Below, piece by piece: positions 59,823 to 61,219 of a stretch of DNA of 64,000 bases; the first letter of the stretch is position 1; each line of letters opens with the position of its first letter. The notes under the pieces were generated by a model, which made no database searches, was not told where the DNA came from, and was given only the letters and a program-made list of their open reading frames with translations. Both the position numbers and the translations under genes were made by a program. Origin of the DNA: an uncultured Clostridia bacterium (GTDB lineage Bacteria > Bacillota > Clostridia > Christensenellales > UBA3700); the NCBI GenBank assembly GCA_948471525.1, contig CAOKSY010000003.1, forward strand, positions 15,265 to 79,264, written 5' to 3'.

Positions 59823-60386
59823 TCATTGATACTTAATCATTTGATCTAATATATGACGCATATCGGATTTCAATATTTCAATATCTATCGTTTTATCATA
59901 TACCGCGCTTATATAATACATATTATCGTCAATATAATATATGATCGTCAAAGAATTTTTCCGTACTTTACCGTTTTCTGCATTGAAGAGATAAGTAATT
60001 GTTTGATTGTTGTATTCATCTGTTATCAAATACTTAGAATATTCTTCCATAATACCGATGCCCAACCCGTCATGTGAGTCTGCGGCAATATAGATATTTC
60101 TATTACTGTCATTAAGACTGATAGAATATCCCGTACTTCTCTTTGGATTTATTTCAAATCTGGTGAGCACTACGCCCATATGTCCCTCGATATAAATAAT
60201 AGAACATTCGACGTCGCCTTCAAAAGGCAATTCCGAAGGCATACTATATTTATCGTTCAACTTTTTATTCAGTTTGTCCAACGTAACGTCTTCTCTTGTT
60301 ACAGGCTGCAATCCCCAATATAAAACTCCCATTGCGATCACAATAAATACTATCACGCTCAACGCAATCAATAACTTCTTCTTCAT
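59823..60386 (-). CDS. membrane-anchored hypothetical protein
   Basis: 187 aa with an N-terminal TM segment (LLIALSVIVFIVIAMGVLYWGL). The gene is AT-rich. Confidence 0.5.
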   Translation of the reverse strand: MKKKLLIALSVIVFIVIAMGVLYWGLQPVTREDVTLDKLNKKLNDKYSMPSELPFEGDVECSIIYIEGHMGVVLTRFEINPKRSTGYSISLNDSNRNIYIAADSHDGLGIGIMEEYSKYLITDEYNNQTITYLFNAENGKVRKNSLTIIYYIDDNMYYISAVYDKTIDIEILKSDMRHILDQMIKYQ

Positions 60387-60477: not shown

Positions 60478-61024
60478 CTAGCGTCTTGTGCGAGCGTCAC
60501 TATTTCGATCTGTCCGTCTATTACCTACTCAAGCAAGCCGCCGCTTCGGTAATGCAAAAAGGAGCGCGTTTCTTGCGCTCCTTTTGCGTTGCCGTCCAAG
60601 GCATGGCTTGCGGTCTGGTGGGCAATATAGGATTCGTAAGGAGCGTAGCGACGGAATAGCGAGCAAGCGTCCTAGCGTCTTGTGCGAGCGTCACTATTTC
60701 GATCTGTCCGTCTATTACCTACTCAAGCAAGCCGCCGCTTCGGTAATGCAAAAAGGAGCGCGTTTCTTGCGCTCCTTTTGCGTTGCCGTCCAAGGCATGG
60801 CTTGCGGTCTGGTGGGCAATATAGGATTCGTAAGGAGCGTAGCGACGGAATAGCGAGCAAGCGTCCTAGCGTCTTGTGCGAGCGTCACTATTTCGATCTG
60901 TCCGTCTATTACCTACTCAAGCAAGCCGCCGCTTCGGTAATGCAAAAAGGAGCGCGTTTCTTGCGCTCCTTTTGCGTTGCCGTCCAAGGCATGGCTTGCG
61001 GTCTGGTGGGCAATATAGGATTCG
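60478..61024 (-). repeat. perfect 194-bp tandem repeat, 2.8 units, each containing a terminator hairpin and ending in the 21-nt 3' end of tRNA-Val(GAC)
   Basis: The period is exact: TGGTGGGCAATATAGGATTCG occurs at 60616, 60810 and 61004. The copies appear identical by eye, and the three track ORFs that start MRASLFRSV are identical. Internal hairpins GGAGCGC-GTTTCTT-GCGCTCC lie at about 60561, 60755 and 60949. Confidence 0.95.
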
Positions 61025-61078
61025 AACCTATGACTTTCTCCACGTCAAGAAGACACTCTCCCTCTGAGTTAATTGCCC
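61004..61078 (-). tRNA. tRNA-Val (anticodon GAC)
   Basis: Hand-folded 75-nt cloverleaf on the minus strand: GGGCAAT-TA-ACTC-AGAGGGA-GAGT-G-TCTTC-TTGACGT-GGAGA-AAGTC-ATAGG-TTCGAAT-CCTAT-ATTGCCC-A-CCA. Confidence 0.9.
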
Positions 61079-61219
61079 ATATTATTTAATACCGAAATAT
61101 TAAATATCAAAGATATTATCGGCACAATTCGAAGTATAGCGGTTATCCGACAAAAAGTCAAGATAATTCGCAAAATTAATTTCAATTTATTATATTTCCA
61201 AAATCAGTCTACGCCGAAG

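Follow-up and report, generated by a model that had tools for sequence, protein, structure and literature searches.

Why should a bacterial tRNA gene be followed by perfect tandem repeats, each of which ends in a copy of the 3′ end of that same gene? The question is raised by a stretch of 64,000 nucleotides from an uncultured Clostridia bacterium (assembly GCA_948471525.1, contig CAOKSY010000003.1, positions 15,265 to 79,264; the whole stretch is referred to as the window), in which a tRNA-Val(GAC) gene on the minus strand runs directly into a 194-bp unit present in 2.8 copies. Phages and genomic islands dock mainly at tRNA genes, and footprints found there are used to map mobile DNA. The reading favored here, to which about even chances are given, is that the 194-bp unit is a miniature, non-coding and non-autonomous integrative module, that it belongs to a family of gut Clostridia which targets the tRNA T-loop, and that it would be mobilized in trans.

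The array (60478-61024) is the sole tandem array of the window, and Tandem Repeats Finder (TRF) reported a period of 194, 2.8 copies, 100% matches and 0 indels. In minus-strand order the tRNA-Val(GAC) gene is followed by one unit, a second unit and a partial unit (Table 1). The 21-nt core, CGAATCCTATATTGCCCACCA, occurs exactly three times, once within the tRNA gene itself, and was absent from shuffled sequences. The GC-rich block was found complete twice (60853-60888 and 60659-60694), and its third copy stops after GACGCTAG at 60478. The terminator hairpin with its T-run reached -13.5 kcal/mol when folded as DNA (z = -4.65) and is present in the fold of the unit RNA as well. The preliminary description of this DNA, made from the letters alone, had named the perfect 194-bp array fused to the tRNA, the tRNA 3′ end closing each unit, the block cut at 60478 and the GGAGCGC/GCGCTCC terminator hairpin with its U-tract, all of which were recovered by these analyses; an ATTACC/GGTAAT helix that it had also proposed lies outside the predicted minimum-energy fold. 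No credible open reading frame (ORF) is contained in the 194-bp unit, and a scan for the sigma-70 consensus detected no promoter-like site inside the repeat units. Mechanical ORFs of 57-135 aa (60486-61089, plus strand) cross the array in antisense with a frame that shifts from unit to unit and are most likely not genes.

A second, single module of the same family follows the tRNA-Val(TAC) gene of the window, and an unrelated native terminator comes after it. The tRNA-Arg(CCG) gene of the window carries no module. About 1 kb downstream of the Val(TAC) module lies a gene of the aminoglycoside-2''-adenylyltransferase family (PF10706, E = 1e-60; 36405-36911, plus strand), which adjoins genes for a helix-turn-helix regulator and a GNAT protein.

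Table 1. Positions of the tRNA genes, module parts and associated signals in the window
Feature	Position	Strand	Basis
Intact tRNA-Val(GAC)	61004..61078	-	ARAGORN; Rfam tRNA 63.5 bits
Core copy 1, last 21 nt of tRNA-Val(GAC), C56 to CCA	61004-61024	-	core search
Unit 1, 194 nt	60810..61003	-	sequence, TRF, motif searches
Unit 1, trailer with terminator, 115 nt	61003-60889	-	
Unit 1, intrinsic-terminator-like hairpin AAAAGGAGCGC-AAGAAAC-GCGCTCCTTTTT	60944..60973	-	direct reading
Unit 1, conserved block, 58 nt, GC-rich, GTGACGCTCGCACAAGACGCTAGGACGCTTGCTCGCTATTCCGTCGCTACGCTCCTTA	60888-60831	-	
Unit 1, block tail GCTATTCCGTCGCTACGCTCCTTA	60854-60831	-	
Core copy 2, end of unit 1	60830-60810	-	
Unit 2, identical to unit 1	60616..60809	-	sequence, TRF, motif searches
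Unit 2, block	60694-60637	-	
Core copy 3, end of unit 2	60636-60616	-	
Unit 3, partial, 138 nt: trailer, terminator and first 23 nt of block	60478..60615	-	
Unit 3, block start GTGACGCTCGCACAAGACGCTAG, 23 nt, then unrelated flank ATCTTTTTC	60500-60478	-	
Terminator hairpins of units 2 and 3, identical to that of unit 1	60750-60779, 60556-60585	-	
Two sigma-70-like promoter matches upstream of the tRNA, TTGACT-17-TATACT and TTGATA-18-AATAAT	61081..61161	-	consensus matches only
tRNA-Val(TAC) carrying a single module	35061..35136	+	ARAGORN
Single module of the same family	35137..35333	+	sequence
Val(TAC) module, trailer with own terminator	35137-35256	+	
Val(TAC) module, block GTGACGCTCGCACAAGACGCATTTGCTTGCTCGCTATGCCGTCGCTTCGCTCCTTA (type 2)	35257-35312	+	
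Val(TAC) module, copy of tRNA 3′ end CGAGCCCTATAGTTTCCAACA, 20/21 identical	35313-35333	+	

Members of the family share one layout, GACGC followed by a variable segment and GCTATTCCGTCGCTNCGCTCCTTA and then by a copy of the local tRNA 3′ end from T-loop position 56. A search of one genome per species with the pattern TCGCTACGNTCCTTACGAATCC yielded 9 loci in Christensenellaceae, Faecalibacterium, Candidatus Limihabitans and other Clostridia, and a metagenome scan with the pattern CCGTCGCTNCGCTCCTTACGA yielded 117 stretches, including human-gut, rumen-type and other assemblies (individual loci are cited below by number, e.g. L007). The module bodies are non-coding and 110-373 nt long (median 155), which is also the distance at which the block lies downstream of a tRNA gene on the same strand, with the tRNA 3′ end following the block. 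The copy begins exactly 21 nt from the tRNA 3′ end, i.e. at C56, in 55 of 62 block-tRNA pairs from independent loci; 36 of the 62 copies are identical at 21/21 positions and 44 are at least 90% identical. Twelve isoacceptors are represented (Trp, Ser-CGA, Ser-GGA, Lys-CTT, Arg-ACG, Arg-CCT, Thr-CGT, Val-GAC, Val-TAC, Val-CAC, Tyr and Leu-TAG). The same block is thus joined at T-loop position 56 to whichever tRNA lies upstream, so that the repeat boundary tracks the tRNA 3′ end in relatives and the reading of these boundaries as attachment (att)-like sites, put forward in the preliminary description, is borne out. A hairpin with a T-run was found within the first 75 nt of 47 out of 50 distinct trailers, which indicates that the tRNA end and its terminator both come with the module. 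At other loci, including a HiFi chromosome (L009), arrays of 2-4 units are found whose units are 94-98% identical. In older modules the distal 21-mers are decayed (L007, L011, L016, L066 and L058). The first of these (IMG/VR UViG_3300006217_001667) carries an identical tRNA-Val(GAC), behind which stand a trailer that is diverged and has a compensated terminator, then the same block, and finally what is left of the core, 14 nt.

Some members of the family stand out for their surroundings. L007 is catalogued as viral; around tRNA-Val(GAC) it is syntenic with the chromosome of the window (with the same downstream genes for a 193-aa and a 256-aa GNAT protein), and a serine recombinase gene is located 1.4 kb upstream of the tRNA. 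L138 (GenBank MT835800.1, 17616-17781), a human-faecal scaffold named 'Bacteriophage sp.', ends in a two-unit module array with the joint CCTTA/CAAATCTTCTCACCCAGACCA, and its module-bearing end is probably bacterial chromosome. In L027 (minus orientation, ~760-880), two modules at tRNA-Arg(CCT) are followed by three additional copies of the final 15 nt of the tRNA, CCGCCGGGAACGCCA, with spacers of ~34 nt (GATCACGGCGG.AAGGTCCG.GCAAGCGAGAAC), an even smaller kind of tRNA-end repeat.

Two observations bear on how the modules came to lie behind their tRNA genes, the constancy of the joint and the nature of the sequence that follows. For the latter, the trailer inside the module was compared with the sequence past the distal copy, using the last unit of each locus. 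In about 20 loci, including the Val(TAC) locus of the window, the two were unrelated (identity 0.15-0.35, random-like) and the 21-mers beside them were identical, from which it follows that the modules are insertions and not products of local slippage. Empty and filled states can be seen side by side in L101, where a 10-kb tyrosine-integrase island with its crossover in the anticodon loop has tRNA-Arg(CCT) directly preceding the native trailer at its tRNA end; downstream, the displaced half-tRNA is followed by the module and then by the native trailer. An identical module stands before a different downstream sequence in L068, and the array closes with a complete unit and then the native trailer in L055, L114 and others. 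Side by side with these data, an origin with no dedicated enzyme has to be weighed, in which the interval would be duplicated through a switch of template, or an illegitimate exchange, between the T-loop and a similar stretch at the block end (CCTTACGA versus GGTTCGA), and homologous recombination on the tRNA gene and the 21-nt copy would then spread it among related genomes. Simple duplication of this kind predicts what is seen in L096, where a second block, almost complete but decayed, comes after the distal copy and is itself followed by unrelated DNA; the same trailer does follow the distal copy in some loci, class-B repeats (see below) read CGAC past the tail and thereby offer a few bases of T-loop microhomology, and homologous exchange is clearly at work in the array. 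Nevertheless, foreign trailers beside perfect 21-mers are the rule in the ~20 loci, and microhomology of 2-5 nt should scatter the joints, whereas the joint is identical in at least 12 independent tRNA types, one of them with a T-loop lacking CGA. This T-loop, TTCAAAT in L138, is nevertheless joined at position 56, so the joint is set by position rather than by microhomology. An enzyme-free origin is accordingly regarded as unlikely.

The array was further compared among strains. Contigs of the same locus were found by means of the exact 187-aa protein encoded just downstream (59823-60386), which retrieved 20 other contigs, and the array itself was compared across seven contigs, the window and L001-L006. 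Independently assembled, L001 spans the locus with 2.8 non-identical copies, its unit 1 carrying one substitution and its distal partial unit six; L002 spans it with 1.8 copies, and the distal unit of L003 is recombinant. Of the seven contigs, four end in the array: L003-L006 begin inside it, as is expected of a repeat that breaks short-read assembly. The truncated distal junction, GACGCTAG/ATCTTTTTC, is common to the window and all six other assemblies of the species, so the array is older than the split of the strains sampled. Its units differ among themselves in other strains and are identical only in the window strain, as assembled. The array is therefore real in nature, its copy number varies and its units are homogenized in the window strain. 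That the repeats might collapse to one copy, which the preliminary description had named as a refutation, is contradicted by the 1.8 and 2.8 copies of the other assemblies. Its proposal of very recent amplification or ongoing homogenization stands as far as homogenization is concerned, but the array and its distal truncation are common to all sampled strains. Unequal crossing-over, which it had offered as an alternative, is probably right for the difference between 1.8 and 2.8 copies and for the mixed distal haplotypes, yet it leaves the origin of the module unexplained.

With the same data the possibility was assessed that the details are an assembly artefact, i.e. that the 2.8 perfect copies reflect a mis-estimated copy number or collapsed variants of a longer repeat. 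Most short-read assemblies of the species do break inside the array (L003-L006), and units that differ in other strains do not differ in the window. Against this, two assemblies made independently bridge the array (2.8 and 1.8 copies), and arrays of the family are present in the HiFi chromosome, which makes an artefact highly improbable. The Val(TAC) module was fixed in 8/8 same-species contigs examined. An empty site was not found for either locus of the window, the homologues of the 187-aa protein (50-59% identity) not being located beside tRNA-Val, and the exact protein of the neighboring GH123 gene was not on record.

The block was then characterized in 129 distinct instances. Its invariant parts are the head, (G/C)TGACGC, and the 24-nt tail GCTATTCCGTCGCTNCGCTCCTTA, which contains direct TCGCT repeats and is nearly invariant across distant Clostridia, a conservation that is partly ascertainment because the tail was the search pattern; between head and tail lie 6-76 variable nt. 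In type 1 the variable segment forms a hairpin with a 2-nt bulge, for which RNAalifold predicted 14 pairs from 22 sequences, with compensatory double changes in 7/14 pairs and no one-sided (G-U / G-T) change, and a conserved 16-nt single-stranded tail leads from this hairpin to the joint. Type 2, to which both modules of the window belong, has no significant fold (z = +1.0 for the window block as DNA), and its conserved feature is direct repeats (GACGCT three times, GTCGCT, TCGCT). Conserved primary sequence together with the lack of a significant fold in the window block fits protein-binding sites in duplex DNA. The whole unit folds only modestly better than shuffled sequences (z = -2.5), and this signal rests on the terminator hairpin. 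Rfam 15 matched only tRNAs in the window region at E≤1, and in seven related loci at E≤0.1 it matched tRNAs, a lysine riboswitch and weak sub-threshold sequences elsewhere, none of them on the block. The preliminary suggestion of a structured RNA is thus not supported for the window copy, whose block has no significant fold and no Rfam family.

About 40% of the block instances lie away from tRNA genes, inside a family of palindromic interspersed repeats (class B) with the layout GTCATT-block-CGACCGAGCG…GGAGAAATCTC, loop, GAGATTTCTCC…GTCGAAATGAC. The block is thus also a building brick of a family that resembles repetitive extragenic palindromic (REP) elements. The palindromic repeats as such (GTCATTTCGACCGAGCG…GGAGAAATCTC / GAGATTTCTCC…GTCGAAATGAC) are abundant in intergenic regions of gut Clostridia and sometimes carry the block (L033, L035, L064, L076, L086, L038 and ~50 others; no Rfam match). 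Small GIY-YIG genes (PF01541, 86-94 aa) adjoin clusters of these repeats in L038, L086 and L136.

From the hairpin and the palindromic relatives a different mode of movement can be derived, single-strand mobilization of the HUH type. The block would then resemble REPs or palindrome-associated transposable elements (PATEs), and a Y1 or Y2 enzyme would recognize its hairpin and a cleavage site at a fixed distance, …CCTTA^C, and would cut in hairpin loops, that of the T-arm of the tRNA gene in single-stranded DNA included; segments from C56 to the block end would be peeled out, or would roll off as multimers, to be pasted into T-loops. Perfect tandem units and arrays with ragged distal ends would be the direct outcome of rolling-circle copying, and both the identity of the window units and the variable points at which terminal units stop would fit. 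The Watson-Crick hairpin of type 1, with its compensatory changes, its lack of G-T pairs and its single-stranded tail reaching the joint, points in the same direction, as does the membership of the block in a palindromic interspersed-repeat family. The window blocks and many other type-2 blocks are nevertheless without a significant hairpin, no Y1/Y2 transposase or Rep gene was found near any block, the orientation of the blocks is unbiased with respect to GC skew (12 vs 20; 6 vs 6), and, in contrast to the ends of transposons, the left end of the module lacks conservation. For these reasons HUH-type movement is considered improbable.

For the favored integrative module an enzyme or a parent element was sought at several levels. 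Pfam searches of all 56 long ORFs of the window returned core chromosomal genes only (among them rpoB, GlnRS, FTHFS, fucose utilization and GH123), and tblastn of the window with recombinases from related loci was negative. No recombinase was thus found in the window, in line with the initial claim that it contains none and that the unit is free of ORFs. Clustering of 1,729 ORFs from related loci revealed two recurrent recombinase families, large serine recombinases (LSRs) and tyrosine integrases. LSR genes are located just upstream of modules in 7 loci, where a degenerate piece of tRNA end and the module trailer separate the LSR from the block; owing to this arrangement, the LSRs are read as separate islands in the same tRNA and were rejected as the module enzyme. 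Tyrosine integrases lie beside the tRNA or the distal copy and were likewise set aside as belonging to independent islands, the crossover of the L101 island lying in the anticodon loop. A further core copy is present within 450 nt in 49 of the 60 tRNA-type blocks with enough upstream sequence, the remainder having pseudo-cores or island ends, and in every case a tRNA end or pseudo-end and a trailer come before the block, within 110-373 nt.

Several islands found in the same tRNA genes deserve mention in their own right. The LSR loci (L008, L039, L068, L102, L118, L120 and L132, also L009 and L042) are situated at the ends of islands in tRNA genes, and Pfam assigned the domains Resolvase, Recombinase and Zn_ribbon_recom to two cluster members (L009 and L118). 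In several of them the island-side junction reads GTTCG, 6-14 unrelated nt and the last 8-16 nt of the tRNA, a pattern that suggests an LSR family with an attB in the T-arm/acceptor region. tRNA targets are unusual for serine integrases. Islands also lie between an identical tRNA-Val(GAC) and the module in L014 (1985-4528) and in L114 (upstream of 1140, minus orientation). The island of L014, ~2.4 kb in length, encodes a 494-aa ORC/CDC6-like AAA ATPase and no visible recombinase, and its right end holds a piece resembling a tRNA end (…CAAACCCTACGCTCTCCACCA, …GTTGCCACACTTCCACCA) with no match to the host tRNA.

Mobile-element collections were searched in addition. When the tRNA and units were compared by blastn with 50,697 phage and 72,556 plasmid records, matches were confined to the tRNA or absent. 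The 94-nt consensus block, at E≤10, gave weak matches of 22-32 nt in GC-rich intergenic DNA of Paenibacillus larvae phages in addition to the MT835800 scaffold that ends in a module array. As none of the tRNA or weak matches is a module, an origin from phages or plasmids was rejected. In L137 (Paenibacillus phage C7Cdelta, 54445-54473, and 7 related phages) an intergenic sequence, CGCTACGTCGCTTCGCTCCTTGCGACC…CGTCGCTGACGCTCC, has a weak resemblance to the block tail (E = 0.2-3) and is consistent across the phages, and it is not a module. Scans of viral contigs for core and block returned only L007, as host flank, and three chance matches in coding DNA. No description of the module family was found in the full-text literature, motif strings included, and in a paper on CGTC/GTAG REPs, Clostridia go unmentioned and Firmicutes are missing from the listed phyla in which such repeats occur. 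The widespread family of tiny non-coding tRNA-linked modules is thus apparently undescribed. Of the preliminary proposal of a miniature element mobilized in trans, the gene-less and non-autonomous character and the lack of a recombinase nearby hold, but no autonomous relative with the block was found.

These searches also bear on whether the module is the scar of a larger element. The block would then be the attR-side arm of a phage, an integrative and conjugative element (ICE) or an integrative and mobilizable element (IME) of which the interior was lost, and the remnant would have been amplified by unequal crossing-over. Insertion by an integrase classically leaves, as its footprint, a direct repeat of the tRNA 3′ end that begins in the T-loop, and the same tRNAs are heavily used by tyrosine-integrase and LSR islands. 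In the strict sense such a remnant would be a cis-mobilizable element (CIME), a class defined as decayed ICEs or IMEs that retain attL and attR (PMC5704250). The block was however found to abut a large element directly in 0 of ~125 loci, and the sizes cluster at the minimum of terminator plus block (median 155 nt) instead of forming a broad decay series. Moreover, the block is absent from viral contigs except for the host flank, phages and plasmids show nothing beyond the weak 22-32-nt matches, and the nearby recombinase-bearing islands have junctions of their own, different from those of the modules. Only a low probability is therefore assigned to a scar.

A function for the host was also considered, with the array selected for dosage as a terminator stack, as a source of a processed RNA ending in …CCA, or as a decoy or alteration of attachment sites. 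Each unit does contain a strong terminator, the 24-nt tail is nearly invariant across distant Clostridia, and the modules sit at tRNAs that are hot spots of islands. On the other side, the units have neither a promoter-like site nor an Rfam family, the z of -2.5 for the unit fold derives from the terminator hairpin, and part of the tail conservation stems from its use as search pattern. In addition, the distal 21-mers decay freely in older modules, so the 21-nt copy itself is not maintained, and a host function appears very unlikely. Because of this free decay and the absence of a promoter, an RNA-guided reading, with an omega-RNA-like scaffold and a guide, was rejected as well.

Under the favored reading, a miniature integrative module mobilized in trans, the following course of events may be envisaged. 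The module comprises a replacement tRNA 3′ end (C56 to CCA, 21 nt), a short trailer with terminator and the conserved block, and the substrate would be a circular or excised [core-trailer-block] unit acted upon by a site-specific recombinase encoded elsewhere in the genome. Insertion would split the tRNA gene between T55 and C56; the 3′ end brought by the module would restore the gene, and the displaced original 3′ end would stay behind the block as a direct repeat. The joint between block tail and C56 would act as the recombination site, attP-like in the circle and attR-like once integrated, the block tail with its direct repeats serving as a recombination arm, and the putative circular joint would read …CGCTCCTTA followed by CGAATCC of the same unit. 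In a single module, exchange between the two 21-nt cores could lead to duplication or precise deletion. From two copies onwards, homologous unequal exchange and gene conversion between 194-bp units could expand, contract and homogenize the array; exchange over 194 bp would account for the 1.8 versus 2.8 copies and for the mixed haplotypes. The species array may have reached at least three units before its distal end was truncated inside the block, and the window strain would carry a homogenized 2.8-copy version. The anatomy, the exact joint, the family, the foreign trailers, the variable copy number and the lack of a recombinase nearby are established by the data; the action of a recombinase, the mobilization in trans and the order of events are what we infer.

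A number of observations weigh against this reading. No recombinase, transposase or nuclease linked to the block was found among the recurrent neighbors in the ~125 loci, and viral contigs, phages and plasmids yielded no autonomous element that ends in the block. Polymorphism for presence or absence of a whole module was not seen within the species, the same-species contigs all carrying both modules. A circle of 150-200 bp is a sterically difficult substrate for recombination. The hairpin of type-1 blocks, kept by compensatory changes, hints at a single-strand or cruciform step, and class B copies have neither a trailer nor a visible duplication and are not predicted by a simple attP model. 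Finally, the arrays of the window, L052, L075, L096, L121 and L125 end in a further partial unit, which stops at a different point in each locus; such terminal units are compatible with later truncation, with modules copying part of the native trailer, or with one-ended events.

The module was further placed among known systems. It shares most features with islands and prophages that tyrosine integrases insert into tRNA T-loops (Islander-type): in both, an intact tRNA is regenerated by element-borne sequence, the displaced 3′ fragment forms a direct repeat at the opposite end, the identity extends from the T-loop to the 3′ end, and tandem arrays are separated by partial tRNA ends. The islands, in contrast, are kilobases long and encode an integrase, whereas the modules measure 130-400 bp and are gene-less, and a relative that shares the arm and bears an integrase was not found. 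Of the features of an island, the tRNA gene with a 3′ direct repeat and the foreign DNA (~20 loci and the empty-type arrangement of L101) are thus present, and an own integrase is lacking. Like CIMEs, the modules are non-autonomous, are bounded by att-like repeats at the tRNA 3′ end and stand in tandem with other islands (L101, L068 and L104); structurally, attL and attR are kept, and genes for integration and transfer are missing. CIMEs, however, are kilobase remnants of a recognizable ICE or IME, while the modules form a uniform, minimal and widespread family with a conserved arm and no known parent, and no ICE or IME sharing their att sites was found from which they could recognizably descend.

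REP/REPIN elements and PATEs are hairpin repeats mobilized by IS200/IS605-type Y1 transposases. The modules are likewise tiny, non-coding and interspersed, many of their blocks have a hairpin and a single-stranded tail, and the block also occurs in a family of palindromic intergenic repeats. The modules at tRNA genes nevertheless carry a 21-nt target copy and a terminator, which are absent from peel-and-paste elements, and the copies in the window lack the hairpin; among the clustered neighboring ORFs, which cover fragments of genomes only, no cognate Y1 transposase (RAYT/TnpA) was present. Arrays of short units that end in a conserved, partly structured site with a fixed crossover are also known from the attC cassettes of integrons, some of which are non-coding. 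In the modules, by contrast, there is no IntI, attI or GTTRRRY core, the anchor is a tRNA gene, and the common segment is the tRNA 3′ end. The module is therefore classed with the integrative elements at tRNA genes; it works like a miniature tRNA-integrating island and resembles a CIME.

A wider interpretation, held tentatively and with a little less than even confidence, is that the modules represent an unrecognized class of ultra-small, non-coding mobile elements of gut Clostridia (~130-220 bp with the core) specialized on tRNA genes. Such elements would carry a spare tRNA 3′ end, a terminator and a block of ~40-100 nt, would insert at T55/C56 through a trans-acting enzyme that recognizes the T-arm, would form arrays and would be kin to the palindromic repeats. 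As a bolder corollary, the altered sequence past the tRNA may shield or decoy the attachment sites of phages and islands.

Metagenome assemblies break at the partial tRNA ends and perfect repeats to which the modules give rise, and software for island finding and tRNA annotation can be misled by them. The invariant 24-nt tail offers a simple probe for further modules and for a hunt for the enzyme by co-occurrence. If confirmed, the modules would be the smallest integrative elements known, using the same T-loop joint in a dozen tRNAs and common in Clostridia of the human and animal gut, and they would imply a recombinase that reads the T-arm and that can be searched for directly by its co-occurrence with them.

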